From NCBI GenBank assembly GCA_964482725.1, contig CAYZYT010000001.1, forward strand, positions 186,061-250,060: a stretch of DNA of 64,000 bases, read 5' to 3'. The translations under genes and the position numbers were made by a program. Origin of the DNA: an uncultured bacterium (GTDB lineage Bacteria > Omnitrophota > Omnitrophia > Omnitrophales > Aquincolibacteriaceae). The notes beneath the pieces are model-generated. The model searched no databases and was not told where the DNA came from. It worked only from the letters and a program-made list of their open reading frames with translations. The number at the start of each line of letters is the position of its first letter. The first letter of the stretch is position 1. Of this stretch, positions 3,686-61,544 are shown piece after piece.

Positions 3686-3745
3686 GCACAGCGAAGGATC
3701 TCGAGCGAGATTCTTCTCCCGCCGTTGGCGGGATCAGAATGACGG
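3675..3745. repeat. Dispersed inverted-termini element, family F1 (CGTCATCCTGAGC...GATCAGAATGACGG), copy 1.
   Basis: The termini are inverted copies of each other. Related copies are at 14881, 25142 and 33538. It lies between the convergent eda and uvrB 3' ends. Confidence 0.55.
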
Positions 3746-11244: not shown

Positions 11245-11309
11245 GTGTCAGGGTGTCAAAGTATCAGAGTTTCAAAACTTTGACACTTTGATACTCTGAG
11301 ACTTTGATA
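11245..11309. repeat. Intergenic element family F3 (GTGTCAGGGTGTCAAAGTATCAGAGTTTCA...), copy X.
   Basis: A near-identical unit is present in inverted orientation at 61485..61544. It lies between lysC and cimA. Confidence 0.55.
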
Positions 11310-16249: not shown

Positions 16250-16448
16250 ATGGCTCCTGCGCAAACGTCCTAAGTTCCGTAGTGATAAAACCTTAACAAA
16301 GACCGGATCGCCCTGATCTTCCATTTTTTGAAATAATAAGGTACTCGGGACCACCCAGACTTCCCTGTTAATTTCCCCAACAAAAGTCGGCGTAGTATAT
16401 CGTGCCCTTGATTAAAAATCAAACAGCCCTTGCGCCGGATATCGGATA

Positions 16449-20100: not shown

Positions 20101-21883
20101 GAACAACGCTTGTCCCGGGATGGTAGAAATAAGAGAACGCTATCTCACCCTCGGCGTTCGCGGTCTGCCGCTTCGCCCAGTCGCAAAGATTGGCAGCCGT
20201 ATCTTCGTAATGGTAATAAAAGTTCCCATCCGTATCCGCATTCAGAAGCGTTTTAGACTCGAGCCTTCCTGAGGCGTGGTAGGCATAGTTCGTCGTGTTC
20301 ACAAGAACGCCAGCGGCATTGTACTCGGACATTACAAGCAACACATCCGTCGCAGAGTAACTCTTGATGAACCTGGCCTGGTGGGTGTTCGGGAAATAGG
20401 ATTCAAAAATCTGATATGTCCCATCTTGATAGAAATTCTCCGTGAAGCCTTCGCTGTAGACAAAACGCCAGCCGGTCAGCTCTCCGTTCGAACGGATCTC
20501 TTCCACGGTGTAAGTCGCGCCCGACCGTTCATGAACGGAAAAAGCGCGATCCAGCGCAGAGATCAGCACCTCGGGCAGAAAAGCACCGCGGCCAAAAGCG
20601 GGTGAGGTTTCAGGCACTGAATAATCCTCGTTAGCGGCATCGACGAACTGAGGATCAGCAAGAACGTTCCCGCCGGTCCAGCCTTCCCCTGTTTTGGGGC
20701 TGATCGCCGGAGGAAGGTGCTGACCCGTAGCATCTCCTTTTTCCGTGTTATGAAAGAGGACATTCCCTTCCACCGCGAGTGCAGGCGTGGCGGTTTCTTC
20801 CCAGATCGACTGGACGATCTGGTGGGCCAAGATGTTGTTCCGCACCGCCGGGGCTTGCCCATTGAGGATCTGAATGCCGATCTTACTGGAAAAGCTTTCC
20901 GCAATTCTGACCCGGTACCACCTCCCGCTCACGTCAAAAGGCCCCGGGCTTGTCGCGGAGCCGTCATCCATCCAGAAGGTACTCGCCTCGGATCGATCCG
21001 CTAAAACAAGGAGATCTCCTAAAGGATCCTGAACCCGGGCACGGACCCAAGTCTTTCCACAATCATTGGAATATTCGATGTAGTAAGCATAGGCTCCCTG
21101 AGGATCCCGGATCTCGAGTTGGATCCCCTGCCCCGCCCTATAACGGAGCCCTGTGAGCTGGATGCTTTGCTCTGCCTCATAGCCTGTGATCGTGTTGTAG
21201 GCGATCGTATTTCCGGTTTTAGGTTCTTTGATGGCGATCGGATTCCCGCGGAAAAGATTTGCTTCGATCAGGATATCCGAGCCATTTCCGGAGACATAAA
21301 TCCCGGCACTTAAATTGAACAGGATCTTATTCTTGCGGACATGAACCTGGTCGCCTTCGATCTTGATCCCCGCCGCGGGGGTCTGCCCCAGCTCGTCGCG
21401 AGCGCCCGTCACGGTCAGATTTTCAATTGTGTTTTTCCCAAGCGCCCGGATCACGGAGGCGCCGGGCACATAATCGCCGTGAATGATCGTGGTCTCTGAA
21501 TTTTCTCCCCGGAGGTTCACCCCCTCCTTGAGCGTGATGCTTTCATGATAAGTTCCGGCATGAACATAAATAATATCTCCTGCCTCGGCCTGCTCGATGG
21601 CATCCTGGATCTTATCTCCTGGATGGACCTCAAGGGCTCCCTCAGGGATCGGATCGCCTTGGGCTTGAAGGTTCGGGGAGCCTAACGACAGAGGATTGGA
21701 GTTCTGGACCGCAACACCGGAGGGAATTTCATTCTGAGGAGCGGGTACGGTCTGTGCATTGGCCTGCTCCAGGGTAAGCGTCGGCACGGGTCGCTGAGCA
21801 TCGTTAAGGGTCAACTCGTTTGTGGCGGCAAGGCCGACGGGCACAGGGATGCTGCTGAAGATAAAAAAAACGGCTGTCCCCAT
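17135..21883 (-). CDS. Giant secreted multidomain protein (about 1583 aa). N-terminal right-handed beta-helix (pectate-lyase fold), then YD/RHS-like repeats, then a large (alpha/alpha)6 glycosidase-like (DUF3131-like) domain, with a C-terminal low-complexity tail.
   Basis: Signal peptide MGTAVFFIFSSIPVPVGLAA. Beta-helix-like repeats (NLTVTG, IYVSGNGSDILIEANLF). YD-like repeats. A sugar-hydrolase-like middle region. The ORF-track start at 22015 is an extension. Confidence 0.65.
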   Translation of the reverse strand: MGTAVFFIFSSIPVPVGLAATNELTLNDAQRPVPTLTLEQANAQTVPAPQNEIPSGVAVQNSNPLSLGSPNLQAQGDPIPEGALEVHPGDKIQDAIEQAEAGDIIYVHAGTYHESITLKEGVNLRGENSETTIIHGDYVPGASVIRALGKNTIENLTVTGARDELGQTPAAGIKIEGDQVHVRKNKILFNLSAGIYVSGNGSDILIEANLFRGNPIAIKEPKTGNTIAYNTITGYEAEQSIQLTGLRYRAGQGIQLEIRDPQGAYAYYIEYSNDCGKTWVRARVQDPLGDLLVLADRSEASTFWMDDGSATSPGPFDVSGRWYRVRIAESFSSKIGIQILNGQAPAVRNNILAHQIVQSIWEETATPALAVEGNVLFHNTEKGDATGQHLPPAISPKTGEGWTGGNVLADPQFVDAANEDYSVPETSPAFGRGAFLPEVLISALDRAFSVHERSGATYTVEEIRSNGELTGWRFVYSEGFTENFYQDGTYQIFESYFPNTHQARFIKSYSATDVLLVMSEYNAAGVLVNTTNYAYHASGRLESKTLLNADTDGNFYYHYEDTAANLCDWAKRQTANAEGEIAFSYFYHPGTSVVQYKDAFSDVARTQRLMRYEYDASGVLIAKTNAKNITSYFNAADGALERVAIEPAGSTDPLPSIEIVRPVITQFANSSNSWTIKFDRAMKGVRYQVQFRTSLMSNDWQPEGLSFVADQYGEISCPDPMADRGNTVYYRIVAQEMTTAADLLTQINLLYFDPAFGMIETTHEYPVEGWLQKAKTQPSNFGFYAYLLATIAAGDLVTSKISKTEAISRLNTMMDHLLVDQADQSLAFMGLFPWFEYTGSDWIRMSGDYGQQVSFEDNTNFTNALAVAYGALLDESLSTNTTIHGAGGILGKINTFIENQRAGYLAMYNGATNTFSRTMKIQDHSLSGTIDYFGAESSAPLLFLILQYGNTFPASAYAKLNFSTHSYTMQDLTTRQVVAPFSGAFQMYWPALLMPEFTNPDLKKMLETYTDVQLDFADRNEQPGFLSASFDVQAHDLLQGPVVTFNWAGDMTVERESATRLHVTSTDNRGIGVAFVESGMDVSGLTLLLNYSSHTPILGAKIDFKKKYGNDLVTVLTINLTLENTGGALRTAPINLPAESFLNDLDEIVFATGSEAGGPLDMTIRNFHVMDGSYEIVYNFPLGIKEIAFDQSFSVETTPSVYNLGAAHMFRPAEVEALLQELIANHRDLVSDHGLWEGKNMNNNLVVTDQVFNNNATFILGMTGTGPDYMTRYLENKGLAAKLESIWNSQTPVSVIGQKPASNFNWDAYKATSWKLSESVRASDRQIRITYQSDTPITGAKFELKHSWSNNMAVYSEPFVLPATGGVPKEFIFTIPADALYWNISEMVVSFPEAQGFPSAKIRRIIVAPAGVPSPLAAVALKAAPLIASSVEIPLEPAIMAQEILPSAVSAAGIVPQTVSLPSSAPRVSVKPSLKFAAADFWAAQRRNQSAKAEKEDTAGMLEAAILSPSNNKGSDPSLGSSSKSRKKSSPKGRLPFRSESFKRKVIPAPVQEALVLTNACGGSLAGTAFCLLGAERIISQD

Positions 21884-22219
21884 ACTTATCAATTTCAATT
21901 TATTGAAATGGGGGCGGCCCAAACTACATTTTTTGGAACAGAAATTAAAAGTTTGGGCGGTTAAAAGCGAAGTCATTTTACAGAAAAATCTTTTCAGCGA
22001 AGAAGGGGATCCCATGGAGTCTTTTTGTCACCTTTTCTCATCAGGAATATAGTTGCCGAAGGCTAACACACCGTCTGAAAAATGGCAAATAGCCCTCCCA
22101 GGAATCTTGGAAGGCAAGTCGCTCATTGTTTGAGATGATCCGTATCGCTATGAATTGCTAGAAGTGAATTCCTGGGACCTCAGGACAAAAATCGTTCTTT
22201 TGTATGGAGCGAAAGGAGA

Positions 22220-33537: not shown

Positions 33538-33602
33538 CCGTCATTCTGAGGGCAAAGCCCGAAGAATCTCGTGTAAGATCCTTCGCTACGCTCAGGATGA
33601 CG
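33538..33602. repeat. Family F1 element, copy 4 (CCGTCATTCTGAGGGCAAAGCCCGAAGAATCTC ... GATCCTTCGCTACGCTCAGGATGACG), between carA and carB.
   Basis: The two halves are inverted copies of the unit CGTCATYCTGAG..AGCGAAGRATC. Confidence 0.55.
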
Positions 33603-34724: not shown

Positions 34725-35018
34725 GGTATTTACCTGGGGTAAGTGCATCCGTGGGCTTCCGTACGTACTATCAGAAGGCCTTCATTTCGGCGCATAGAAT
34801 ACTTCAGGTTCTCATAACTGTCCAGCGCGGCGGATCCTCCGAAAAATTATGAAATCCCGTTCGCTGGGTGTTGAAAAGTCCCGGCCCTGCCCCAGCCTTC
34901 CCGAGAGCTAATGGGTTGGCTGGAACAATCACCAGGGGAGGTGATCTTGGGCCGGGATGAAATTTATTAAACTGGAACAGATCTGCTTTGCTTTCCAAGA
35001 CCTGTCCCTCAGGGTCTC

Positions 35019-38193: not shown

Positions 38194-38209
38194 TGCAAAA
38201 GACGTGCCA
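38194..38209 (-). promoter_or_regulatory. Sigma-54 (-24/-12) promoter for amtB-glnK-porin. The minus strand reads TGGCAC-GTCTT-TTGCA.
   Basis: Perfect consensus elements with 5-nt spacing, about 110 nt upstream of the amtB ATG. Confidence 0.7.
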
Positions 38210-38242: not shown

Positions 38243-38262
38243 TTTTTTTTGGGGGGGGGGGG
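38243..38262. repeat. Homopolymer tract T8 G12, about 35 bp upstream of the amtB sigma-54 promoter.
   Basis: TTTTTTTTGGGGGGGGGGGG is seen directly in the sequence. Confidence 0.8.
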
Positions 38263-38541
38263 ATTTTCATGAGAGATCAGAATGATCCCGATGCAACAAA
38301 CGCATGAAGCAGACTCGCCACGCAGCGTGGCGGGTTCGTCCTCACCCAAACTTCGGGTGAGGCGAAAAAGGCGAGCCCCTCAGGGGATGAGGAAGCCCGC
38401 CTGCCTTGCCCTATTCGCGATTAATCAGAAGAAAATAGAGGACCATAGGACTATCCTTGTCTCCAATTTCATTTCTTGAATGGTGACAAGGATTGCCCCA
38501 ATCTCAGCACCGCTTCGACTGATTGGTATTGGGACTAACCC

Positions 38542-38571
38542 GGCTTTTCATCAAAAATCTGATGAAAAGCC
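38542..38571 (-). terminator. 11-bp perfect stem hairpin GGCTTTTCATC-aaaaatct-GATGAAAAGCC immediately 3' of glnN.
   Basis: Lies 24 nt downstream of the glnN stop. No clean U-tract follows. Confidence 0.45.
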
Positions 38572-38594
38572 AGGGATTGCCCTATTTGAAAAAC

Positions 38595-40742: not shown

Positions 40743-40759
40743 AGCAAGTTCTATGCCAA
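40743..40759 (-). promoter_or_regulatory. Sigma-54 promoter for glnN. The minus strand reads TGGCAT-AGAAC-TTGCT.
   Basis: Correct GG/GC spacing. About 35 nt upstream of the glnN ATG. Confidence 0.6.
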
Positions 40760-40809: not shown

Positions 40810-40854
40810 ATACAAAATTGTATGCGCCTTTTTTTCGAGTATACAAAAATGTAT
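40810..40854. promoter_or_regulatory. Two 14-bp palindromes ATACA-N4-TGTAT (40810..40823 and 40841..40854), centred 31 bp apart. Candidate enhancer (UAS) for the glnN sigma-54 promoter.
   Basis: They sit about 50 to 110 bp upstream of the -24/-12 element. Spacing is three helical turns. Confidence 0.45.
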
Positions 40855-40863
40855 CTTATCCAG

Positions 40864-40904
40864 GGTCTGATTCTCATTAGTCTGGAATCAAAGGTATCCA
40901 GGAC
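40864..40904 (+). repeat. Bipartite inverted-repeat element, family F4, copy 3 (GGTCTGATTCTCATTA-N13-GGTATCCAGGAC).
   Basis: Same architecture as the copies at 42665 and 50324. Confidence 0.5.
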
Positions 40905-40959
40905 TAGCCCCAAGACTTATCCGCCTCACTAAGATAAAAGGGGGCTTTTCCCGACCCCC

Positions 40960-40997
40960 TTCGAGGAAAAGAAAATAAAAGTCAGGACCGTCCTGTC
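40960..40997 (-). terminator. Terminator of the NifA-like gene: hairpin CAGGAC/GTCCTG followed by a U-rich run on the minus strand.
   Basis: The minus strand reads GACAGGACGGTCCTGACTTTTATTTTCTTTTCC directly after the stop codon. Confidence 0.5.
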
Positions 40998-41010
40998 GAC
41001 CTTTGCATTT

Positions 41011-42609
41011 TTAACGAAGGCAGGATAGACCGTAGATCTTGACCTTATACCCCAGGATCCGCTCCGTAACCCCAAGGATCTTAGCCGCTTTCCGTTGGCT
41101 CCCGCCTGTTTTTTGGAACGCCGCCTGAATCAACTTCTTTTCGAGTTTCTCAACTGCACCCGAAAGATCCCCGCAAGATTCTTCGCTTTCCTTCTCGCCG
41201 GCAGGAGACTCGCGCTCCTTAAGCTGGATCGTAACCGGATGGCCTTTGGGCCCCGGGATCGGGAAGAGATCGGCTTCAAGCGTATCGGTCTTGCAATGGA
41301 TCACGGCCCTCTCGATCGCGTTCTCGAGCTCACGAATATTGCCGGGCCAGGCATAACCCATGAGATATTTCATGGCTTCATCGGAAACATACTTCACTTT
41401 CTTCCCGTTCTCCAGGGTCGCTTTTTTCAAAAAATGCGCGACAAGAAGCGGAACATCTTCCCGCCTCTCCCGCAAAGAAGGCAAAAGGATCGGCACCACA
41501 TTGAGCCGATAATAGAGGTCTTCCCGGAACTGCTTTTCCTGAATGGCCTTCTCAAGATCGCGATTGGTCGCCGCGATCACCCGCACATCGACGTGGATCG
41601 TCTGGGTCCCCCCCACACGCTCGAACTCCCGCTCTTGGAGCGCGCGCAAGAGCTTGACCTGCATCGACGCCGAAATATCCCCGATCTCATCGAGAAAAAG
41701 CGTTCCGCCGTCCGCCATTTCAAAACGCCCTAATTTCTTTGCCGCCGCACCGGTAAAGGCGCCCTTTTCGTACCCGAAGAGTTCGCTCTCCAGAAGCGTT
41801 TCCGGCAATGCCGCACAGGACACTTTCACGAAAGGGCCTTTGGCGCGATGGCTTCCATAATGGATCGCATGCGCCACCAGCTCTTTTCCTGTTCCTGTTT
41901 CGCCCCGCAAGAGCACGGTCGAACGCGTCCGGCTCACCATGTCGATGGCTTCATAAACTTCTTCCATTCGCTTGCTTTTGCCGATGATGTTGGCGGGATG
42001 GAATTTTTTGGCAAGTTCCCGTTTCAGCTCAACATTCTCGAACTGGAGCTTTGCTTTTTCCTTTTCACGGAGCCGGTAACTGGCAACGGTTTGCGCGAGG
42101 ATGGAACTGATAATGGTCAAAAGCCTCAGATCCTCGTCCAAGGAGACATTCCCCTCGAAAAGGCGGTCCACACTCAGCGCCCCGATGGTTTCCTGATCGA
42201 TCTTGATGGGAACACAAATGAAAGCGATCCGGTTACGACGAAAATCCTTCCGCGCACCGGTTCGATTAAGAAAAAGCGGCTCTTCTCCGATATTCGGAAC
42301 GGCGATCGGCTCTCCCGCCTCTACGACCTTCCCGGTAATCCCTTCCCCGACCTTATAGCGGCCTTTCTTTTTAGCCTGATCGTCCAGGCCATGGGCGATC
42401 TCGATCGTAAGACTTTCCCCGTCAGCGTCGAGAAGCGTCAGCGTTCCCCGGTGCATCCCCATTTTCTCCTGGAGAACATCCAGCGCCTTCCTCATACGTT
42501 CCTCGATCGGGAGCGGAGATGTCATGTGCCGGGTGATCTCATAGAGCACACTCAGCTCCTGGATCTCACGCTGAAGTCCTACGGAAGGTTTCATTTTTTC
42601 GGTGCCCAT
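41011..42609 (-). CDS. Sigma-54-dependent transcriptional activator with an N-terminal GAF domain (NifA-like, no receiver domain) and a C-terminal Fis-type HTH.
   Basis: GAF region, AAA+ sigma-54 interaction domain ([21 protein letters not shown]) and HTH ([16 protein letters not shown]). Confidence 0.8.
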
Positions 42610-42664
42610 AGATTATTTCACGGCCTGACCCGCCCAAATGACAGACTTTAAAGGTTGGCGGGAC

Positions 42665-42708
42665 GGGTCCTGATTACCTTTATTTTAAAATTAATGAGAA
42701 TCAGGGCC
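42665..42708 (-). repeat. Family F4 element, copy 1 (minus strand: GGCCCTGATTCTCATTAATTTTAAAATAAAGGTAATCAGGACCC). It overlaps the lpxI stop codon.
   Basis: The lpxI TGA is the TGA inside CCCTGATTCTC. The element ends about 50 nt upstream of the NifA-like start. Confidence 0.55.
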
Positions 42709-43516
42709 TGTCACTAACGCCATAAAGGACAATACCGGCACGATTCGCTTTTTCCACAAAGATGTCCTTACCGATAAAAAGCGTCTTATGCGCCTCGAAA
42801 GCAAAAGCCTCGGCATGCACTGCCATAAGGACCTCCAGCGTCTTCAAACCTACCGCCGGCACATCAAAACGCATGTCCTGGTTCGGCTTGGCTATTTTCA
42901 CCACGATGATCTTACCCCGCCCGAGCGCCCCGCCTCGGCGTATCGCTTCGTCGGTACCTTCAATAGCTTCGACCGCGAGCACCGCTTTATTTTTGACGAC
43001 CACCGTCTGTCCGATGTCTGCGCCGGAGATCTTCTGTGCCATTTCAAAACCGAAATCGATATTGTCCATGATCGACTTGGAGGGCTTCTTCTTGCCGAGC
43101 AGTCCCGGCCCCGGCATCATGTCTTTGAGAAGACAGGTGGAGTCCTGGAGCACGATGCCTTTTTTAAAGAGATAATCGGCAATCCCGCTTAGGAGAGAGT
43201 CGTCTTTATGGTCCTTCAGCGTCACCAAGACCGCCATCATGTCGAGGTCAAGACGCACGTTCTCTTTAAAAAAGCGAACCTTCTCGACCTTCCCGGCCAT
43301 GATCGCTTCGTGAGCACCTTCATCTTTGAGGAATTTCGAAAGCTTTTTGAGCTCGCCAACTTTTACCCAAGAAAAAGCATCCGAAATCTTTTCCAGAGAG
43401 GGTTCGGCTTCTTGTTCGATTGCGCAAGTTACAACCCGGTATCCCGCCCTTTTAGCCTCTTCGGCCACCAGGATGGGAAAACGGCCGTTCCCTGCGATGA
43501 TCCCCATGGTTTTCAT
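42701..43516 (-). CDS. lpxI: UDP-2,3-diacylglucosamine hydrolase LpxI (DUF1009 family).
   Basis: N-terminus MGIIAGNGRFP and overall LpxI-family similarity. Co-located with lpxA and lpxC. Confidence 0.7.
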   Translation of the reverse strand: MKTMGIIAGNGRFPILVAEEAKRAGYRVVTCAIEQEAEPSLEKISDAFSWVKVGELKKLSKFLKDEGAHEAIMAGKVEKVRFFKENVRLDLDMMAVLVTLKDHKDDSLLSGIADYLFKKGIVLQDSTCLLKDMMPGPGLLGKKKPSKSIMDNIDFGFEMAQKISGADIGQTVVVKNKAVLAVEAIEGTDEAIRRGGALGRGKIIVVKIAKPNQDMRFDVPAVGLKTLEVLMAVHAEAFAFEAHKTLFIGKDIFVEKANRAGIVLYGVSDRP

Positions 43517-43648
43517 GTTTTACCCCGTTCAAGAGAGGGAGCGATGGCGTACATGAGAGGAAACCTACGCTCCAAATTCTCGATTTCTTTTTATTGATGC
43601 CCAGCAGGATGGCTCATCCCGCCAAAGGCAGGATGATAGAGAATAAAA

Positions 43649-44416
43649 CTATCCGCAAATACCCCGCTCGGACTTCTCCAAAAATGAAAGAATCGTCTGA
43701 ATGGAAGGACTGAGGGGGATGTCTTGCTGGATCTGCTTGATAACGTTCTTTAAAATAAGACCCGACTTGAAGATGATCTTGAAGGCTTTTTTGATCGCCG
43801 ATTTTTCTGCTTGGGAAAATCCCGCGCGATCCAAACCCACGGCATTAATGCCGAAGGCATGCGCCGGATGACCGTCGACCATCATAAAAGGAGGGATGTC
43901 TTGCACGACCTTGGAACATCCGCCCGTAATCGACAATTTCCCGATCCGGACGAACTGGTGAACCGCAGAGAGGCCTCCGATGATCGCTTGGTCCTCCACG
44001 ATCACGTGCCCCGCAAGCGTCGCGTTATTGGCAAGCGTTGCACCATTATGGATGATGCAATCGTGAGCGACGTGCGCGTAAGCCATCAGGAGGTTGTCGC
44101 TGCCGATTACGGTCTCGGTACCGTTTAGGGTCCCAGGATTCAAGGTTGCGTATTCACGGATCGTGTTGCGATCGCCGATCTTGAGATAACTCACACCGCC
44201 ATCGGCTTTTTTGTCCTGTGTAAGGCTACCGACCACCGCGCCGGTGAAGATCTCATTATCTTCCCCGAGGGTGGTGTGCCCTTCGATCGTCACACGCGGC
44301 CCGACTTTTGTACGCGCCCCGATCTTTACCGTAGCCGCGATGATGGCCCAAGGACCGATCTCCACCCCTTCACCCAGGATGGCATCCGGATGGACGATCG
44401 CGGAAGGATGGATCAT
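43649..44416 (-). CDS. lpxA: Acyl-ACP--UDP-N-acetylglucosamine O-acyltransferase.
   Basis: Left-handed beta-helix hexapeptide repeats. Start MIHPSAIVHP. The ATGA overlap with the upstream stop is typical of operon coupling. Confidence 0.85.
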   Translation of the reverse strand: MIHPSAIVHPDAILGEGVEIGPWAIIAATVKIGARTKVGPRVTIEGHTTLGEDNEIFTGAVVGSLTQDKKADGGVSYLKIGDRNTIREYATLNPGTLNGTETVIGSDNLLMAYAHVAHDCIIHNGATLANNATLAGHVIVEDQAIIGGLSAVHQFVRIGKLSITGGCSKVVQDIPPFMMVDGHPAHAFGINAVGLDRAGFSQAEKSAIKKAFKIIFKSGLILKNVIKQIQQDIPLSPSIQTILSFLEKSERGICG

Positions 44417-45696
44417 TCCCGGTCGACCACGGCGAACTTCACATCCGCTTCGCATACAAGTTTTTCCCCCACATAGGCCTTTCCGGAACATTGACCGAAC
44501 TTGGCACGTTTCTTTAGGACCTCAACCTCCATCCGAAGCGTATCCCCCGGAAGAACCGGACTGCGCCATTTGACGGCGTCCACGCTCATGAAATAGGCGA
44601 TCTTGCCCCGGTTCTCGGGCTCGCCCAACATGATCACCCCGCCTACCTGCGCCATCGCTTCCACGATCAGCACCCCCGGCATCACCGGATGCCCGGGGAA
44701 ATGTCCCTGAAAAAAATAATCGTTCATGGTGACCTGTTTGAAACCCGTCGCGCGTGTCCCCGGCTCGAAATTCTCGATCCTATCCACAAAAAGGAATGGG
44801 TATCGGTGCGGAATGATCTTCTGGATCTCTTCGACATTCAGTGTTTTGGAGAGTGGTTTCGGTTCAGCGGGAACGTTCATCATTAATTTCCTCACAAGTT
44901 CGACGTTAAGGGCGTGGCCACTCCGGGAAGCGATGACATGCCCCCGAATAAATTTCCCACACAAAAAAAGATCCCCCAGAATATCCATCATTTTGTGACG
45001 ACAAGCTTCGTTTTCAAACCGCAAAGTGTTCTGGAGCGGCTTGTTCTTCTCAAAAATGAGTGTATTGGAAGCATTCGCTCCCTTGCCAAATCCTTGGGAG
45101 AGCAAGAGCTCCGCCTCCTTTTTAAGGCAAAAGGTGCGAGCCGAAGACAACTCCCGCTCAAAGATTTCCGGCAAGATCGGAAGCGATAGGTACTGGTCCA
45201 GAAGGTTCACATCCCGATAACTGAGCATGTAGGAGATCGAGAAAGAATCCGCCGGCAAGATCACGATCGACTGATCCCCCTGATCGATGTACACAGCCTC
45301 CTTGACCTCAAGGAACTTCCGCTCCGCCATCTGTTCCTCGAGGCCCGCGGCGATCAAGGCCTTCGTGAACTCTTGGGCACTCCCATCCATCCCGGGGACT
45401 TCTTCTCCGTCGATCTCCACCAGAGCGTTATCGATCCCGAGCCCGTGAAAAGAAGCCATAAGATGTTCGATCGTCCGAACGCGCCCCGTCCCCACCGAAA
45501 TCGCGGTTTGGCGCATCTCATCGGAACAGACATTCTCGATCGAGGCCTTCACCTTAAGGTCAGGGGCCAGATCCACGCGGCAAAAAAGTATGCCGGCATT
45601 TTCCGAAGCGGGACGCACACACACCGTGACCTTGCGACCGGTATGGAGCCCCGCACCTTCGAAAACGGCCTGGCTTTTGAGAGTCCTTTGCTTCAT
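44413..45696 (-). CDS. lpxC-fabZ: Bifunctional UDP-3-O-acyl-GlcNAc deacetylase / 3-hydroxyacyl-ACP dehydratase (LpxC-FabZ fusion).
   Basis: N-terminal LpxC domain (HTGRKVTV, zinc ligands) fused to a C-terminal hotdog FabZ domain (HFPGHPVMPGVLIVEAMAQ). Confidence 0.85.
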   Translation of the reverse strand: MKQRTLKSQAVFEGAGLHTGRKVTVCVRPASENAGILFCRVDLAPDLKVKASIENVCSDEMRQTAISVGTGRVRTIEHLMASFHGLGIDNALVEIDGEEVPGMDGSAQEFTKALIAAGLEEQMAERKFLEVKEAVYIDQGDQSIVILPADSFSISYMLSYRDVNLLDQYLSLPILPEIFERELSSARTFCLKKEAELLLSQGFGKGANASNTLIFEKNKPLQNTLRFENEACRHKMMDILGDLFLCGKFIRGHVIASRSGHALNVELVRKLMMNVPAEPKPLSKTLNVEEIQKIIPHRYPFLFVDRIENFEPGTRATGFKQVTMNDYFFQGHFPGHPVMPGVLIVEAMAQVGGVIMLGEPENRGKIAYFMSVDAVKWRSPVLPGDTLRMEVEVLKKRAKFGQCSGKAYVGEKLVCEADVKFAVVDRE

Positions 45697-45708
45697 CGTT
45701 CTCGGGAC

Positions 45709-46221
45709 TTAAGCTTTCTTATATTTCTTCGCGAGCTCCGCAGAGACCTGCGCCGTGACATCAAAAGACTTTTTCTGGGCGAGAAGCACGCGTTTATTGA
45801 AGATCATGTCATAACCGCCTTTGGCCGAAAGGTCCTGGACGATCACATCGATCTCCTGGAAGATCTCACGAACCACCTTATCGCGCTGCTCCGCGAGTTG
45901 CTGACGGACGCCGCGATCAAAATCCTCGAGCTGACGTTTCTTCTCGATCAATTGTTCCTGCTTGGCGGCACGGGCATCCGCCGCGAGAAGGGCCAATTCA
46001 TCTTCCATCGAACGGATCTTGGCCATCATATCATTACGTTCTTTTTCCTTGGCTTCTCCCGCGGTCTTAAGCACCAGGTCCTGATCCTTAGTCTTTTGGT
46101 AATTGTCAAAAACCTCGCCCACATCCACATACGCAACCTTCATCTCAACCGCGAAGGCCGGAAGGCTCATGCCCAACATCATCAATAGGGTTAGAAAACC
46201 CGCTGTCATTTTACGGCTCAT
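45709..46221 (-). CDS. skp: Periplasmic chaperone Skp (OmpH).
   Basis: Signal peptide, then a coiled-coil-rich 150-aa protein. Located between bamA and the lpx genes. Confidence 0.75.
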   Translation of the reverse strand: MSRKMTAGFLTLLMMLGMSLPAFAVEMKVAYVDVGEVFDNYQKTKDQDLVLKTAGEAKEKERNDMMAKIRSMEDELALLAADARAAKQEQLIEKKRQLEDFDRGVRQQLAEQRDKVVREIFQEIDVIVQDLSAKGGYDMIFNKRVLLAQKKSFDVTAQVSAELAKKYKKA

Positions 46222-46263
46222 GGTAGTTCTCCTTTGTTAGAATGGAACGGTGGTTGAAACTTT

Positions 46264-48804
46264 TTAAAAACTACGGCTCAAACTAAATTCAAAACGTCCG
46301 TTTTTGTTTTTGGTATCCCGGTTCGAAATGGGAAGACCATAATAAAAAGCCAAAGGCCCGATCGGTGTCTTGACCTTGATCCCGGGGCCGACGCTCACGG
46401 CGAATTTCCCGAAATCGATATTGTAAGAATCCTTGCTAACATTACCCGCGTCAATAAAAAACACCCCGCGGAATGCGTCAAGATACGGCAGCGGAAAAGT
46501 GTAGTCCAGGTTCACGATGGCCATGGTCTGACCGCCCACAGCTTCCCCGCCCTCCTGAGGCCCCACGCGACGGTAATTGAAACCACGCACGGTGCCGAGA
46601 CCGCCCGCAAAGAATCGGTCGTAGGCGGGGGTCGTCGAAGTTTTCCCGAAGGATTGCGCGGAAGCCAAACGGGCCTGAAATTCGATCTGATGCTTTTTAT
46701 GGAACGTAAGATATTCCGTGTACCCGGATCTCAGGATATAATACTCCTGGTCGCCTCCAAGGAAACTCCCGATCAGCTCACCGGCAAGATTGATCACGCG
46801 CCCCTTGGTGGGGTTGAACACATTGTCACGATTGTCAAAAGTCGTGAACGCGCGAAGTCTTGAGAGCCAATCCGGTCCTTCAAACTCCGTGACAGAAACA
46901 GGCGCGCTGCTCGAGACGTCCCGAAGTTCCACACGTTCCAACGTATACCCGCCGCCCGCCCGGAGGACATCTTTAAAGAGGCGTGACAACGTCGTGGAAG
47001 CCCCCATTCGCCGCTGACCAAAATCGGTGTTCTTATTGTCTTGGGAAGTGGCAAAGAGATTTGTGCCCCAGGAAATCGGTTTATTGAAAAGGTACGGCTC
47101 CACGAAGCTGACGTCATATTCCTGATTGATCGTTCCCATTTGCCCGCGGATCGAAAGCGACTGCCCGCCGCCCGTGAAACGGGGCCAGTTGAGGATATCG
47201 AAATTCCTCTGGGAGATCTCGGCAAAACCCATGAAGGTATCAATGGAACTGACACCGCCCCCGAAGGAAAGTTCCCCGGTGCGTTTTTCTTTCACTCGGA
47301 AAATGAGGTCCTTGCGGTTCGCCCCGGCGTCCGTGGGTTCGGTATCATACGTGATCTCTTCAAAATAGTTCAGATTCTGGAGACGCTCCTTGGACTTCTC
47401 GATCTTCTTGCCGTCAAAGCGCTCGCCCGGTCGAATGCGTAGTTCGCGACGAATGACCTTGTCACGGGTCTTGGTGTTCCCGCGGATCTGGACCTTCTCG
47501 ACAAAATAGAGGTCCCCTTCTTGGATCTCGTACATGATATCCACTTTACCGCTATCGCGATTCAGTTTTACGTCAGGCACCACGCGAGCTTCAATATAGC
47601 CTTCACTGGCGTAGAACTGACGTATCTTTTCAATATCCTGAGCGACGTAGAATTGAGAATAGGTCAGGCCGGGGAGCATTTCAAGCTGCTGCCAAAGTTC
47701 GGACTCGGGGAAAATCGTGTTCCCTTTGAACTTGATCTCGCCGGTGAGATAGTGTTGCCCCTCATCAATCTTGATCAGGATCTTGATCGTGTTCTGGTCC
47801 TTGTTATAATCGAATTCGGGAAGCACCTTGACGTCCAGATAACCTTCTTTCTGGTAGAAAAAGCTGATCTTCTCAAGGTCTTTCTCAAAGTCACCCTCCT
47901 TGAATGTCCCGAAGAGGAACCACTTCTTTTCTTTCGTCTTCATGAGCCTTTGAAGCTGCTTGACCTTGAAGGCTTGCACCCCTTCAAAAGAGATCTTGGT
48001 GATCTTAAACTTTTTCCCCTCGAAGACCTTGATCGTAATCACAGCCTCTTTGGTCTGAGGATCCACGTTCACCGTCGTCTGAAGATCTACGAACCGGAAG
48101 CCCTTGTCCGCGTAAAGCTTGCGGATCTCTTCTTCGCCCTTTTTGACGGCCTTGCGATCCAGGATCTGCCCTTCGATCACGCCAAGCGTCTTGCGGAGCT
48201 TATCTTCTTTAAAGGAAGTGGCCCCTTCGATCGTAATCTGCTTAACGATCGGCTTCTCCTCCACCTCCACGATCAATTTATACCCTTCAGGGAGTTCTTC
48301 CACCTCGAGCTTCACATCCTCAAAAAATCCAGTCGCATAGAGCCGTTTGATATCCTCGTTAACGGTCTGCTGCTTGAGAGCAAGACCCTGCTTCGTTTGG
48401 ATCTTACTTAAAATAGTATTCGTGCTCACGATGCGATTCCCACGAACATCCATCGCCACGACTGTTTTGGGCGTTGGCTGGGGCTCCGGAGCGGAAGCCG
48501 CGGGTTGGGAATTAGAACTTGAAGCGAGAGCCTCGGGCGCTGCAACCGGAGCCACCTCTTCCTTCGTATCGGAGGGAACTGTCTCAGCCGCCGGTGGGAC
48601 AGCAGGACTTGAAACAGAAGACTCTGTCGCTGGAGCCCCTGCAGAGGGGGCTGTCGCATTTTCATTCGCAGGTGCCGAGGCCGTTGCCGAAGAAGCCCCA
48701 ACAGCCTCAGGCATTGTTTTCTCAGCCGCATCTTCGGCAAGAACCGGAAAAGCATGGAACGCGCAAAAAGATATCCCTAAAAAAAGCACTATCAAACGCT
48801 TCAT
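46264..48804 (-). CDS. bamA: Outer membrane protein assembly factor BamA. A roughly 100-aa Ala/Pro/Ser-rich low-complexity linker follows the signal peptide.
   Basis: POTRA repeats and a C-terminal Omp85 barrel ending RFEFSLSRSF. Confidence 0.9.
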   Translation of the reverse strand: MKRLIVLFLGISFCAFHAFPVLAEDAAEKTMPEAVGASSATASAPANENATAPSAGAPATESSVSSPAVPPAAETVPSDTKEEVAPVAAPEALASSSNSQPAASAPEPQPTPKTVVAMDVRGNRIVSTNTILSKIQTKQGLALKQQTVNEDIKRLYATGFFEDVKLEVEELPEGYKLIVEVEEKPIVKQITIEGATSFKEDKLRKTLGVIEGQILDRKAVKKGEEEIRKLYADKGFRFVDLQTTVNVDPQTKEAVITIKVFEGKKFKITKISFEGVQAFKVKQLQRLMKTKEKKWFLFGTFKEGDFEKDLEKISFFYQKEGYLDVKVLPEFDYNKDQNTIKILIKIDEGQHYLTGEIKFKGNTIFPESELWQQLEMLPGLTYSQFYVAQDIEKIRQFYASEGYIEARVVPDVKLNRDSGKVDIMYEIQEGDLYFVEKVQIRGNTKTRDKVIRRELRIRPGERFDGKKIEKSKERLQNLNYFEEITYDTEPTDAGANRKDLIFRVKEKRTGELSFGGGVSSIDTFMGFAEISQRNFDILNWPRFTGGGQSLSIRGQMGTINQEYDVSFVEPYLFNKPISWGTNLFATSQDNKNTDFGQRRMGASTTLSRLFKDVLRAGGGYTLERVELRDVSSSAPVSVTEFEGPDWLSRLRAFTTFDNRDNVFNPTKGRVINLAGELIGSFLGGDQEYYILRSGYTEYLTFHKKHQIEFQARLASAQSFGKTSTTPAYDRFFAGGLGTVRGFNYRRVGPQEGGEAVGGQTMAIVNLDYTFPLPYLDAFRGVFFIDAGNVSKDSYNIDFGKFAVSVGPGIKVKTPIGPLAFYYGLPISNRDTKNKNGRFEFSLSRSF

Positions 48805-50165
48805 GCAGATTCCTCCGATCTGAAAAATTCGGGATTATCGAAACGCGTCCATTCTTTGAGAAACACCAGCGGGATCACCCCCGTGGGGCCGTTGCGCTGT
48901 TTCGCAATGATCGCCTCGGCCTTGTTCTTGTTCTCTTCAGATGGCTGATAATACTCTTCTCGGAAAAGAAATACAACCACGTCCGCATCCTGTTCGATGG
49001 CTCCGGACTCACGAAGATCGGAAAGTTGAGGACGATTACCGGTTCTTGACTCCACCGCGCGGGAAAGCTGGCTCACCGCGATAACGGGAACCCGGATCTC
49101 GCGCGCAAGAGCCTTAAGGGATCTGGAAATTTCGGAGATCTCCTGCTGACGGTTCTCAGAGGACTTCGACCCCTGCATGAGCTGTAAATAATCGATTACG
49201 ATCAGCGAAATATCGTGCTTCATTTTGAGACGGCGGGCCTTGGCACGGATCTCGAGCACGGTCTGGCCCGGCGAATCGTCGATAAAGATCGGAGCCTCGG
49301 AGAGTTTCCCGGCAGCGTTTGTCAGCTTCGGCCAATCCTGATGAGAAAGATACCCCGTACGAACTTTTTGCGCGTCCACACGCGCGTGAGAGCAGAGCAT
49401 CCTCTGCACAAGTTGCTCTTTGCTCATTTCAAGCGAAAAAATAACCACGGGTTTCTTCAGGTTGATGCCCGCGTGCTCGCAAATCGCGGTAGCAAAAGCG
49501 GATTTCCCCATCGAGGGACGGCCGGCCACGATCACCAGGTCCGAAGGCTGCAGCCCGGCTGTCTTCATATCAAATTCGTGAAAGCCGGTCGCAATGCCGG
49601 TAATGTGTTCTTTGCGCTGGAAAAGCTGGTCGATCGTTTCCATGCTCTCATGAATGATGTCCTTGATCTGGACGGTCTTATTTTCGATCTGGGATTGTCC
49701 GATATCAAAGATCATTTTCTCCGCGCTATCGATCATCTCACGGGCGTTCCCTTCGGCCTCCAGGCTGTTCTGAACGATCTGCGTCCCCGATTGGATAAGC
49801 TTGCGAAGAAGGGCTTTGTCTTTGACGATCCTGGCGTAATGCTCAATGTTCGCCGCAGTCGGAACGATCGTGGTCAATTGTGTGAGGTAGCTGATCCCGC
49901 CCAGGTCCTCAAGCTGCTTGCGTTTCTTGAGCTCTTCGGAGACCGTAATGAGATCCACAGGGTGATTGCGGGAAAAAAGAGTCGTCATCGCACTAAAAAT
50001 GTTTTGATGACGTTGATCGTAGAAAAAATCAGGGGTCAAGACTTCGATGGCTTTTGCGAGTGCGATCTCGTCAAAAAACATCGCACCCAGAACGCTCATT
50101 TCAGCTTCGCGATTCTGGGGCGGAAGTTTTTCGTAAAGATTGACCGTTGTCTTCAGTTCAACCAC
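48801..50165 (-). CDS. dnaB: Replicative DNA helicase.
   Basis: N-terminal DnaB domain, then a RecA-like domain with Walker A GRPSMGKSAFA. Confidence 0.9.
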   Translation of the reverse strand: MVELKTTVNLYEKLPPQNREAEMSVLGAMFFDEIALAKAIEVLTPDFFYDQRHQNIFSAMTTLFSRNHPVDLITVSEELKKRKQLEDLGGISYLTQLTTIVPTAANIEHYARIVKDKALLRKLIQSGTQIVQNSLEAEGNAREMIDSAEKMIFDIGQSQIENKTVQIKDIIHESMETIDQLFQRKEHITGIATGFHEFDMKTAGLQPSDLVIVAGRPSMGKSAFATAICEHAGINLKKPVVIFSLEMSKEQLVQRMLCSHARVDAQKVRTGYLSHQDWPKLTNAAGKLSEAPIFIDDSPGQTVLEIRAKARRLKMKHDISLIVIDYLQLMQGSKSSENRQQEISEISRSLKALAREIRVPVIAVSQLSRAVESRTGNRPQLSDLRESGAIEQDADVVVFLFREEYYQPSEENKNKAEAIIAKQRNGPTGVIPLVFLKEWTRFDNPEFFRSEESA

Positions 50166-50323
50166 AAATGGCCTCTAAAGAGGTTTAAGACGTTCGCCCA
50201 ATTCCCCTTCGTCTTTTCTTGAAAGAGGAACTGGACTACCCAAGTCTTCTTGTTTCAATTCCACATCGGCTGACTTAGACCGCCCCAATCTCCACCGTGT
50301 AAAAAGGATGTTTTCTGGGGCGG

Positions 50324-50367
50324 TCCTGATTACCCGTTGATCTGTAATTAATGAGAATCTGGGCCGC
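50324..50367 (-). repeat. Family F4 element, copy 2 (minus strand: GGCCCAGATTCTCATTAATTACAGATCAACGGGTAATCAGGACC). It overlaps the rplI stop codon.
   Basis: The rplI terminal codons CAT TAA lie inside CTCATTAA. The element sits upstream of dnaB. Confidence 0.55.
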
Positions 50368-50803
50368 GAACAAGTTCGACCGTCAGACGCGTCTTGACCT
50401 GCGGGTAGATCTCAAGATCGACCTGGTGCGTGCCGAGGGTCTTTAGCGGATCCTTGATCCGGACCTGTTTTTTCTCGAAGCTGTGCCCTTGCTTTTCAAG
50501 CGCCACGCGGAGATCTTCCGCCGTCACAGAGCCATAAAGCTTGTCACCTTCACCCGCACGAACCTCGAGCGTGATCGTAAGATCCTTCATCTCTTTAGCG
50601 CGTTTCTCCGCAGCCTCTTTTTCTTTGGCTTTTCGGACCACGTTGCGAGCGCGCTTTTCTGCGAAGAATTGCTTGTTAGCGCGGGTCGCCGGGATCGCAA
50701 GCTCCTGAGGCATCAAGAAATTTCTTGCGAATCCGTCACGCACACGCACAACATCGCCTTTTTTGCCAACGTCGACTACATCTTTCAAAAGCAATAACTC
50801 CAT
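50348..50803 (-). CDS. rplI: 50S ribosomal protein L9.
   Basis: Full-length L9 homology. Confidence 0.9.
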   Translation of the reverse strand: MELLLLKDVVDVGKKGDVVRVRDGFARNFLMPQELAIPATRANKQFFAEKRARNVVRKAKEKEAAEKRAKEMKDLTITLEVRAGEGDKLYGSVTAEDLRVALEKQGHSFEKKQVRIKDPLKTLGTHQVDLEIYPQVKTRLTVELVRGPDSH

Positions 50804-50846
50804 GGATCAATTCCTCTTTTTTCTTTTTTTAAAATGGCCCCGGCGA

Positions 50847-51167
50847 TCAGTTCGCCTGGAATGCTAAAAGCCCCGAGTGGCGTGACTTTTTAATGAGACG
50901 TGTGAGCGTCCGCTGGTCCTTAGAGCTCAAACGCGTGATACGCCGCGGCAGGATCTTGCCTTTCTCGGTAATGTATTTCCCGAGAGCTTCCACATCTTTG
51001 TAATCCATGAGCGGCAGGACGCGACGCATACGCTTGCGCACGGGCCGGGAAGGACTCCGGCTCGGAGAACCATAACCCTTTTCGCCTTTTTTGGGACCAC
51101 GCGCATTCTTATCAAAAGGCTTTTTCTTTTCGAATTTTCCAAACTTTGAAGAAGATCTCGGTTTCAT
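50847..51167 (-). CDS. rpsR: 30S ribosomal protein S18 (with a basic N-terminal extension).
   Basis: [19 protein letters not shown]18 core. Confidence 0.85.
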
Positions 51168-51187
51168 ATTTTTTACACCTGGCTGAT

Positions 51188-51673
51188 TTAGAAGGGAATT
51201 TCTTCGTCGGGTTTAAGTTCGTCCTTTGAAAGGGAGACGGAATCCTTTTTGGAAGGCATGCCGCCCTCCGGGGCTTCAAAAATACTGTCATCCACATCCA
51301 TGACCGGGACATCCGCTCCCTCGCCCTTCCCGCCTCCGGGCTTCGAGCCGAGGAACTGGACGTTGTCGGCAACCACTTCGGTGGAATATCGTTTATTACC
51401 ATCCGGGCCATCCCAACTTCGTGTCTGAATTCTTCCCTCCACAAAAACGGGGCGGCCTTTTTTTAAATATTCATTGCAGATCTCGGCAAGACGCGCCCAA
51501 ACCACGATCCGGATAAAACAGACTTCTTCTTTTTTTTCCCCCGCCTTGGAATTGTACGTGCGGTTGACAGCGATCGTAAACGTCGTCACGGCCTGTCCCG
51601 AAGGGATATACCGAAGTTCCGGATCCCGAGTAAGATTCCCGATCAACATGACTTTATTCAAACTTACGGCCAT
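51188..51673 (-). CDS. ssb: Single-stranded DNA-binding protein.
   Basis: OB fold and the acidic tail DEEIPF. Confidence 0.9.
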
Positions 51674-51704
51674 AGGTCACCCGATATTTTGCACGTTGGA
51701 TTGA

Positions 51705-52046
51705 TTATGCCTTTGGGGTCGCAGCGGGAGCACTCGGAAGAGGCGGTAACGTAGGCTTCTTCGCGGGGATGCTCACCATATATCTCAAAAGATTTTCCTG
51801 AAGTTCCAGTTCCTTGCGGAAATCCTGCGCCCGGGACGGATCCATTTCAAACTCAAAAACAAAAGTTCTGCCGTCTTTGTATTTTCGGATCATATGTCCG
51901 AGCGCCTTTTTCCCGAGATCGGTCTTCTGAATCACTTTCCCCTGAAACTTCTCGATCCACTTCACAACCTCTGAGGCAGGATCCTTGTGCCCCTCCCCCG
52001 TAATCTCCGGCGGAAAAATAAACAAACCTTCGTATTTTTTCATCAC
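51705..52046 (-). CDS. rpsF: 30S ribosomal protein S6.
   Basis: S6 homology. First gene of the rpsF-ssb-rpsR-rplI-dnaB array. Confidence 0.9.
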   Translation of the reverse strand: MMKKYEGLFIFPPEITGEGHKDPASEVVKWIEKFQGKVIQKTDLGKKALGHMIRKYKDGRTFVFEFEMDPSRAQDFRKELELQENLLRYMVSIPAKKPTLPPLPSAPAATPKA

Positions 52047-52472
52047 ACACTCCCTCGGCGTCTAGCACCGTTCTCCATATATTTTAAATGGTTGAACGGT
52101 ACAGCACTGCGAACCTTTTCAAATCAACCGCAACGCAGTGCTAGATTAAAATGATAACTCTTCCCGTAAGTTTCATAAACAGAAGCTACAGAAGCAGTTA
52201 TGAAGTTTTTAGGCCTTCGAAAAGGCTAAAAGAGGAGACAATGTAACATAAATGCCGCTCTTGAGCAACCCTGACTTTTATTTTCTTTTATGGCTAGTGA
52301 GTCAGAACCTACGCGCTGCGTAGGGACTTGATTCTCATTGAATAAAAAACTTACGCGTCATCCGCACGGAACAGCCCTTACGGCTTTAAAGGCAGATCCG
52401 TGCAGTCCTAAACACTCTTTTTAAAAAGAACCAAAGATGAGAGCCGGATAGTCCAAAAGCCTATCCCTCAAA

Positions 52473-61484: not shown

Positions 61485-61544
61485 GTGTCAAAGTATCAAC
61501 GTTTCAACGCATCATGAAACTCTGATACTTTGATACCCTGACAC
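61485..61544. repeat. Family F3 element, copy Y. The palindrome is built from two inverted copies of GTGTCA(GGGTAT)CAAAGTATCA..GTTTCA.
   Basis: The reverse complement of the right arm, GTGTCAGGGTATCAAAGTATCAGAGTTTCA, matches 11247..11276 almost exactly. Confidence 0.55.

Follow-up and report, generated by a model that had tools for sequence, protein, structure and literature searches.

A conserved inverted-repeat motif in Omnitrophota is probably the head hairpin of a dispersed modular repeat

The REP, BIME and REPIN sequences of Proteobacteria, which are associated with RAYT proteins of the Y1 HUH type, are short imperfect palindromes of ~40 nucleotides (nt), flanked by a short motif that is conserved. 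They lie outside genes, typically just behind stop codons or between cistrons, in many copies that are single or clustered and occur in both orientations; they are transcribed within messenger RNAs (mRNAs), and their sequence is conserved beyond the neutral level. Here we describe an element that shares these properties, found in a 64-kb stretch of DNA (the window) from a bacterium of the uncultured phylum Omnitrophota and in related genomes. The original prediction for this window singled out the motif F4, a pair of inverted boxes that overlaps stop codons, precedes regulatory and replication genes, and was considered compatible with a promoter or a protein operator. We consider it probable that F4 represents the head hairpin (H1) of a modular repeat that is dispersed, restricted to one lineage and similar in kind to REP, BIME, BOX and MITE sequences. 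The element family is new, although its class is familiar, and the phylum is unstudied in this respect.

The basic unit of the element is ~80-90 nt long and consists of two stem-loops, a head (H1 or an alternative, H3) followed by a tail (H2). As in REP/BIME sequences, H1 is a palindrome of ~43 nt, CAG or TAG stands at the junctions, and the element recurs, with 8 arrays in the window and ~20 contigs of metagenome-assembled genomes (MAGs) carrying it. Conservation of the stem sequence, also typical of REP/BIME, is seen for H1, whereas the H2 stem covaries and is conserved in structure, not sequence. REP/BIME sequences alternate in orientation, whereas the Omnitrophota units run head-to-tail and are inserts with matching 3-4-nt flanking repeats; no RAYT gene was found for them in the window and 374 kb of related loci with approximate queries. 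The pneumococcal BOX element (boxA-boxB(n)-boxC) and the NIME and RIME repeats of Neisseria and Rhizobium share with the Omnitrophota element a conserved head followed by a variable number of ~45-nt modules, as well as intergenic siting, stable stem-loops and a copy number that varies between strains. There is, however, no sequence similarity, no distinct terminal 'boxC' module was identified in the Omnitrophota element, and its modules are single hairpins parted by 3-nt junctions. PATEs derived from IS200/IS605, and MITEs, are likewise non-autonomous, ~80-90 nt long, precisely present or absent at orthologous sites, and bear a hairpin at each end. Like a PATE, the Omnitrophota unit carries a subterminal hairpin on either side (H1 or H3 on the 5' side, H2 on the 3' side) and lacks terminal inverted repeats, while its CTAG and CTAA flanks recall the YTAR target duplication of IS5-family MITEs. 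In contrast, IS200/IS605 elements have fixed ends and insert 3' of a single fixed tetra- or pentanucleotide without target duplication, whereas the triplets flanking the Omnitrophota units vary but match for each insert. The orientation by replication strand expected of PATEs is not seen either, GC skew being uniformly negative across the window with 4 arrays on the minus and 5 on the plus strand. MITEs of the DDE type have a target-site duplication of fixed length and terminal inverted repeats of at least ~10 nt, more than the TCC...GGA of the Omnitrophota units, for which no autonomous partner is known.

F4 was found in a region (36.7-55.2 kb of the window) in which every gene lies on the minus strand. 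In the direction of transcription the order is prs, L25, pth, rpsF, ssb, rpsR, rplI, dnaB, bamA, a skp-like gene, lpxC/fabZ, lpxA, lpxI, a NifA-type sigma-54 activator, a GS-III-like glutamine synthetase and amt. Copy c1, GGCCCTGATTCTCATTA-N13-GGTAATCAGGACC (42666-42708, minus strand), lies between lpxI and the nifA-like gene, and copy c2, GGCCCAGATTCTCATTA-N14-GGTAATCAGGACC (50322-50365, minus strand), between rplI and dnaB; a T>A change in box 1 of c2 breaks one stem pair. Copy c3 (40863-40904, plus strand) is degenerate, with two changes in box 2 (GGTATCCAGGAC), and c4 (52323-52350, plus strand) is a remnant with box 1 only. These occurrences are far above chance, which would yield an exact 13-mer 0.002 times per window; allowing up to 2 mismatches, the window holds 5 matches to box 1 (1.45 expected) and 4 to box 2 (0.99 expected). 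The lpxI stop TGA (42701-42703) lies inside CCCTGATT and the rplI CAT-TAA (50348-50353) inside CTCATTAA, while H1 ends 56 nt before the nifA-like start in c1 and 156 nt before the dnaB start in c2. The original prediction had correctly described the position of the motif, its neighbours, the two enclosed stop codons, the distance of 50 to 150 nt to the next gene, and its conserved inverted-repeat nature. It was mistaken in placing stop codons in all three frames of the loop, as these are found in 2/3 frames of c1 and 1/3 of c2 in the gene direction. The box spacing, thought to be fixed, is so for the two window copies, but in relatives the gap between GATTCTCATT and GGTA ranges from 11 to 20 nt. 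The boundaries were drawn too short, with at least one further hairpin on the 3' side, and the association with regulatory and replication genes is fortuitous and peculiar to this window, since the neighbours in relatives are unrelated. The observation was thus largely right and the functional reading wrong in kind: F4 is a module of a repeat array with insertion/deletion polymorphism.

Alignment of the copies together with their flanks showed that the element extends beyond F4, which is no more than its first module (H1, ~43 nt); a second hairpin, H2, lies directly 3' of box 2 in every copy. H1 has the form TCCTGATT-CTCATT...GGGT-AATCAGGR, in which a 7-bp stem (CCUGAUU/AAUCAGG) is followed by a C-U mismatch, U-G and C-G pairs, and an A/U-rich loop of free length. 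After the alternative head H3 (TCCCAAT-ACCnATCAAT-inner hairpin-ATTGGGG), too, H2 comes next. H2 itself reads TCCnnnTC, a loop of roughly RCCnTT...GAAAAGAAnAnAnn, GAnnnGGR and CAG; its 8-bp stem changes in sequence from locus to locus while pairing is kept through compensatory substitutions (TCCAGATC/GATCTGGA, TCCAATTC/GAATTGGA, GTCCTGCC/GGCAGGAC and TCCTTGTC/GACAAGGG, for example). Both helices were recovered by RNAalifold. Using a MAFFT-only alignment that was not fitted to structure, 6/8 H2 pairs vary on both sides and 92.3% of cells pair, as opposed to 29-52% in slid-partner controls; the covariation score was reached by 0/500 shuffles. Diverged H1 copies, lying outside the reach of the text pattern used for searching, also have compensated stems: CCTTGGTT/AACCAGGG at L007, CTGGCTT/AAGCCAG at L010 and, fully compensated, CACCGTTC/GAACGGT at window position 52062 (L numbers denote loci outside the window). 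The hairpin units measure 38-48 nt each and are separated by 3-nt junctions (CAG, TAG, CAA, CGG or CTG). All four Y x R combinations are seen at the outermost H1 pair, which gives no strand assignment. The top strand of the element has 54 G-U pairs and 10 A-C mismatches, with most G-U contributed by one invariant pair, and for H2 the counts are 20 and 9. In the mRNA sense, H1 folds weakly (energy between -13 and -14 kcal/mol, z between -1 and -2.3).

A generic 'NCC...GGN' hairpin finder gave 61 matches as compared with ~50 in shuffles and was therefore uninformative, so a covariance model of H1+H2 (R1) was run on the window. R1 detects 8 arrays, namely c1-c4 and those at 52062-52144, 38405-38582, 21874-21960 and 16310-16395; a ninth, the degenerate pair at 43565-43651, was added by inspection. 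The window holds at least 19 units in all; 4 arrays are sense and 5 antisense to the surrounding genes, and 6/8 begin on a stop codon or within ~25 nt of one. The features are as follows:

42666..42708, minus strand: c1 H1, intact head hairpin (F4 copy 1), containing the lpxI TGA; R1 score 73.2 bits (42625-42711)
42625..42665, minus strand: c1 H2, tail hairpin GTCCCGCC...GGGCGGGTC-AG, directly 3' of H1
50322..50365, minus strand: c2 H1, head hairpin (F4 copy 2), forming the last 5 codons and TAA of rplI; R1 score 69.4 bits
50280..50321, minus strand: c2 degenerate H3-type hairpin GCCCCAG...ATTGGGGC, first half of a two-hairpin insert
50236..50279, minus strand: c2 H2b, hairpin TCTAAGTC...GACTTGGG-TAG, which with the H3-type hairpin makes up the insert missing from L016, L050 and L063
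50194..50235, minus strand: c2 H2c, hairpin TCCAGTTC...GAATTGGG-CGA, orthologue of the sole H2 in L016, L050 and L063
40863..40904, plus strand: c3 H1, degenerate head hairpin, antisense to the nifA-like and GS-III genes; intact at this site in L056 and L062
40905..40990, plus strand: c3 extra segment between H1 and H2, holding the nifA-like intrinsic terminator on the minus strand (40934-40961)
40991..41028, plus strand: c3 H2, tail hairpin, in antisense overlap with the nifA-like stop codon (41011-41013)
52323..52350, plus strand: c4, box-1 half of an antisense H1; full in L063 and L050, half in L016 and L091
52062..52144, plus strand: two-hairpin unit, H1-like + H2, with CTAG...CTAG flanks; 32.1 bits; missing from L016 and L063
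38405..38582, minus strand: four-hairpin array in the GS-III 3' untranslated region (UTR), including H3+H2 at 38451-38537; 39.1 bits
43565..43651, minus strand: degenerate H3+H2 in the lpxA-lpxI spacer, with the lpxA stop TAG as junction triplet; the L003 site is empty
21874..21960, plus strand: H3+H2 pair, antisense to the neighbouring minus-strand genes; 42.9 bits
16310..16395, plus strand: degenerate H1+H2 pair, antisense to the neighbouring genes; 26.1 bits

Other genomes were scanned with a degenerate H1 text pattern, using one genome per species. The contig scan returned 66 loci where ~74 would be expected by chance (an estimate), of which ~20 are contigs of Candidatus Omnitrophota MAGs that match far beyond the pattern, flanks included. 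Proteins of these MAGs are 81-98% identical to those of the window and the gene order is shared; the best L9 homologue, at 95% identity, is a protein annotated as Omnitrophota. A metagenome scan added 23 loci and a scan of viral contigs gave 0 matches. In relatives, H1+H2 precedes genes for RsmB, AsmA, enolase, a PstS-like protein, a SWIB protein, an ion channel and a tRNA, and both orientations are represented. Downstream of most copies, at a distance of 40-280 nt, lies a gene of the same orientation; at four loci H1 points into the 3' end of a convergent gene, at two further loci the element is antisense to both neighbours, and the copies of L052 and L088 lie in divergent spacers. Rfam at gathering score found two tRNAs only in the whole window and no element match, Rfam E-value scans of both regions yielded nothing credible, and a literature search on repeats of Omnitrophota/Omnitrophica produced nothing relevant.

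Synteny allowed genomes to be compared spacer by spacer. Between pth and rpsF, the window reads AATCTAG, an 83-nt two-hairpin unit and CTAG-ACGCC, where L016 and L063 have AATCTAGACGCC / AATCTAGATGCT; loss from L016 and L063 is as likely as gain by the window, because L090 and L091 carry the unit. Between ssb and rpsR, the filled site is that of L016 (TTCTAA, 77 nt, CTAA-ATCAGCC), and L026, L050 and L063 have TTCTAAATCAGCC. L016 also contains H3+H2 between CGG...CGG in the L25-pth spacer, with none in L050, L063, L090 or the window. The lpxA-lpxI spacer of L003 is 34 nt long and empty, while that of L056 has H3+H2 between TAG...TAG, the first TAG being the lpxA stop codon. At rplI-dnaB, L016, L050 and L063 have H1 and one H2, and the window and L026 have H1 plus three units, the extra H3+H2 pair being inserted at a CAG junction. 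L078 holds an H3+H2 pair between CTG...CTG that L080 does not. In L062 and L068, H1+H2 is present in 82-nt tandem copies. The flanking triplet thus differs by site (TAG, TAA, CGG, CTG, CAG) and matches on both sides of each insert; direct repeats of 3-4 nt are found in 6 filled/empty pairs, while the unit termini share only TCC...GGA. The matching flanks behave like a 3-4-nt target duplication, with microhomology as the alternative. Decay is evident as well: c3 has 23/25 box positions left plus an 86-nt insert, the c4 site has half an H1 in the window, L016 and L091 with a whole one in L063 and L050, and L093 has lost box 2 at rplI-dnaB. Taken together, these orthologous sites show that intergenic DNA has gained and lost units, or has had them multiplied in tandem, and that a stop codon is very often the site or part of it. 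The units leave matching 3-4-nt repeats on both sides, then decay or persist.

Insertion at stop codons bears on the gene ends themselves. The L9 protein of Omnitrophota usually has 148 aa and ends in VRQP* (or QA/QQ), and that of the H1-bearing clade has 151 aa and ends in VRGPDSH*, its final five codons and TAA stop being box 1. In L090, whose L9 is 90% identical, CAA CCC TGA stands before a hairpin that resembles H1 but lacks the CTCATT/GGTAAT boxes, and L091/L092 have no H1 at rplI. H1 has rewritten the L9 C-terminus, the VRQP* end being ancestral. Units supply the stop codon at rplI and lpxI, and at rplI also a short C-terminal tail.

We compared the persistence of H1 with the divergence of neighbouring coding sequence. 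When the window is set against L016, L026, L050 and L063, identity at the fourfold-degenerate sites of dnaB, rplI and ssb is only 58-69%. By comparison, in copies that the search pattern had not picked out, box positions are kept at 22/23 (window c2), 22/23 (L094), 23/25 (window c3, antisense) and 21/23 (L003 c3, antisense), while the loops at orthologous H1 sites differ freely. At 65% identity per site, the probability of at least 22/23 matches is ~7e-4 (an estimate). Because box retention exceeds fourfold-site identity, the H1 stem and loop-proximal boxes are constrained, in both orientations relative to transcription. This points to recognition at the level of the DNA or the element. Such strong, orientation-independent conservation of H1 is a notable feature of the family.

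In the mechanism that we favour, a trans-acting enzyme would recognise the H1 hairpin, most likely as folded single-stranded DNA or a cruciform, which would explain the conservation of stem and boxes, the free distal loop and length, and the indifference to orientation. Transcribed units in an operon or 3' UTR in addition form RNA stem-loops and may act in a REP-like manner, by 3'-end protection or cistron decoupling. The mobilising or binding protein is one that we infer only, and several points weigh against a dispersed repeat as the explanation. Pfam and NCBIfam searches of ~45/50 open reading frames of at least 90 aa revealed housekeeping functions only, and no transposase or RAYT-like gene was found in the window. 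No Y1/RAYT-like match below E = 0.1 was obtained in ~374 kb of related loci, with approximate queries (IS608 TnpA and E. coli RAYT) and weak sensitivity. The H1-headed unit itself provides no clean filled/empty pair with flanking repeats, the clean cases being H3+H2 units or stems of the TAC..GTA or CAC..GTG type; the flanking repeats vary (TAG, TAA, CGG, CTG, CAG), and microhomology could yield them. Intact H1 leans towards the sense orientation (12 sense and 4 antisense loci, p ~0.08, an estimate). Simple copying and decay does not predict H2 stems that differ by locus yet stay paired; selection for pairing or template-switch repair would therefore be needed. Finally, conservation at orthologous sites over saturated synonymous divergence fits a host function equally well.

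The main rival, which we consider unlikely although it partly overlaps with a dispersed repeat and does not exclude it, is that H1, together with H2, is a cis-acting RNA stem-loop of host mRNAs, bound by a specific RNA-binding protein or RNase and marking cistron boundaries for processing, 3'-end protection or the decoupling of strongly from weakly expressed neighbours, with dispersal being secondary. It would account for H1 boxes and H2 stems that are conserved or compensated at orthologous sites where fourfold sites are ~60% identical, for the siting of 6/8 window arrays at or near stop codons, for the excess of G-U over A-C on the top strand (54 and 10 overall, 20 and 9 in H2) and for the 12/16 loci at which intact H1 is sense. 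Transcription also fits: since the GS-III array sits upstream of the canonical terminator, the arrays are transcribed as 3'-UTR or intercistronic RNA. However, antisense copies keep the asymmetric boxes equally well (L056, L062, L063, L081, L083, and c3 at 23/25), which would not be expected of a function in sense mRNA. The 4 sense and 5 antisense arrays of the window, the coming and going of units among close relatives with no visible replacement, and the lack of an Rfam match also speak against it. Another reading, distinctly improbable in our estimation, holds that the units form an undescribed class of hairpin-ended mobile element, moved by an enzyme with no previous link to such ends, or a domesticated one whose H1, as a folded single strand of nucleic acid, would be bound sequence-specifically by a protein of the host; this would explain the strong, orientation-independent conservation in the face of saturated synonymous sites, the head-to-tail growth at 3-nt junctions and the preferential capture of stop codons.

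Neither promoter, dimeric-regulator operator nor canonical intrinsic terminator is supported as a function of H1. A sigma-70-type promoter (-35 TTCTCA; -10 GGTAAT or GTAATC), with H2 as a 5' stem-loop of the transcript, is very improbable. In c1 and c2 a distance of 16-18 nt separates the hexamers, the co-oriented genes lie within reach of most copies, and L052 and L088 have theirs in divergent spacers, where a promoter is needed, but across relatives the box gap has a 9-nt spread, four loci would fire into the 3' end of a convergent gene, and both head-to-tail duplicates and arrays that lack H1 exist. Diverged copies, that of L090 included, retain the stem but lose the hexamers, and in sigma-70 and terminator consensus scans H1 was not flagged, with counts at shuffle level. 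There is equally little to recommend an operator with half-sites CCTGATT/AATCAGG and a regulon including nifA-like, dnaB and GS-III. In its favour, the palindromic half-sites keep their sequence whichever way they face, but the distance between them varies from ~24 to 33 nt and helical phasing is therefore not kept; the stems of diverged copies covary, some copies lie within coding ends, H1 is always coupled to H2 and array growth, and the neighbouring genes have no common functional theme. As for termination of the upstream gene (lpxI, rplI), we attach hardly any probability to it in spite of a hairpin at or just past the stop codon: H1 is followed directly by H2 with no U-tract, its stem is rich in A and U, its loop measures 20-30 nt, its sense fold is weak as given above, and some copies lie in divergent spacers. 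Terminators of the canonical kind, with a GC stem and U-tract, exist elsewhere, after the nifA-like gene (40934-40961) and GS-III (38365-38401). A number of other candidates were rejected: a CsrA/GGA decoy, as GGA is in the stem and not the loop; a K-turn in H2, for lack of tandem G-A pairs; an anticodon-loop mimic (CUCAUUA), the loop having 10-20 nt extra; a DNA uptake sequence, as the boxes never stand alone; and attC, for which the R'/R'' cores are absent.

Other regulatory candidates were observed in the same gene cluster. Upstream of dnaB, the Shine-Dalgarno sequence (AGAGG) that precedes the GTG start by 7 nt is paired within a hairpin (CCTCTTTAGAGG, 50163-50185, minus strand). This hairpin is kept in all relatives, including L090 and L091, which lack H1 here, and looks like translational control of dnaB. 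The 115 nt upstream of rpsF (52141-52255, minus strand) are near-invariant in the window, L016, L050, L063, L090 and L091, in contrast to the ~60% identity at fourfold sites, and have no Rfam match. They are probably the rpsF promoter and a structured leader, with S6/S18 autoregulation as a query. Matches to the sigma-54 promoter are found 111 nt upstream of amt (TGGCACGTCTTTTGCA, 38194-38209, minus strand) and at the GS-III-like gene (TGGCATAGAACTTGCT, 40743-40758, minus strand), the latter conserved in L056 as TTGGCATGGAACTTGCAT; the start of the GS-III-like gene is probably mis-set, because this match falls just inside the annotated GTG. Both matches are consistent with the NifA-type activator encoded next to them. 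At ~60-100 nt upstream of the GS-III sigma-54 promoter lie two near-palindromes, ATACAAAATTGTAT and TATACAAAAATGTAT (40810-40823 and 40840-40854, plus strand), which L003 and L056 also have in conserved form (CTACAATTTTGTAG, ATACAATTTTGTAT). The NifA-like protein may use them as enhancer sites, and they make better operator candidates than F4. A C12-A8 homopolymer pair in the GS-III-amt spacer (38243-38262, minus strand) differs in length in L003.

Further repeats were noted in the window and its relatives. Additional hairpin families (TAC...GTA and CAC...GTG stems, CTG junctions) are placed directly after stop codons, at bamA-skp in L008 and L056, ssb-rpsR in L090 and L093, and in L081-L087. 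L081 has a REPIN-like arrangement, in which an inverted H1-like unit comes after H1, and L087 has an array of four units directly beside a tRNA gene. A separate family of long, near-perfect hairpins with the stem CAGGGACAGGTCC...GGACCTGTCCCTG occurs at 63047-63082, 63760-63795, 8877-8915 and 34971-35009, two identical copies being 713 nt apart. Runs of an 8-nt unit (TTTGAYAC-like: GTGTCAAAGTATCAGAGTTTCAAAACTTTGACAC...) at 11245-11312 and 61485-61546 form a 97% complementary inverted pair 50 kb apart. A 42-nt inverted pair, CGTCATCCTGAGCACAGCGAAGGATCTCGAGCGAGATTCTTC (3675-3716 and 33561-33602), is 86% complementary with each member at a gene end, and a related sequence, ATCATCCTGAGCGAC, is present in the L008 bamA-skp insert; this is probably another small repeat family. 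The tandem repeats in open reading frames at 1-204 and 761-1028 (periods of 51 nt and 72 nt, 60-77% identity) look like parts of repeat-containing proteins.

The repeat family described here accounts for assembly breaks in this uncultured phylum, with the contigs of L017 and L062 ending inside the repeat, and for variable gene ends such as the L9 tail and the lpxI and lpxA stop codons. Its units provide markers for strain-level variation. For annotation, it follows that F4-type motifs should not be taken as operators of the adjacent genes. As the H1 boxes remain intact while neutral sites are saturated, a hairpin-recognising protein should exist, and finding it would reveal either the mobilising enzyme or a use to which the host puts the element.

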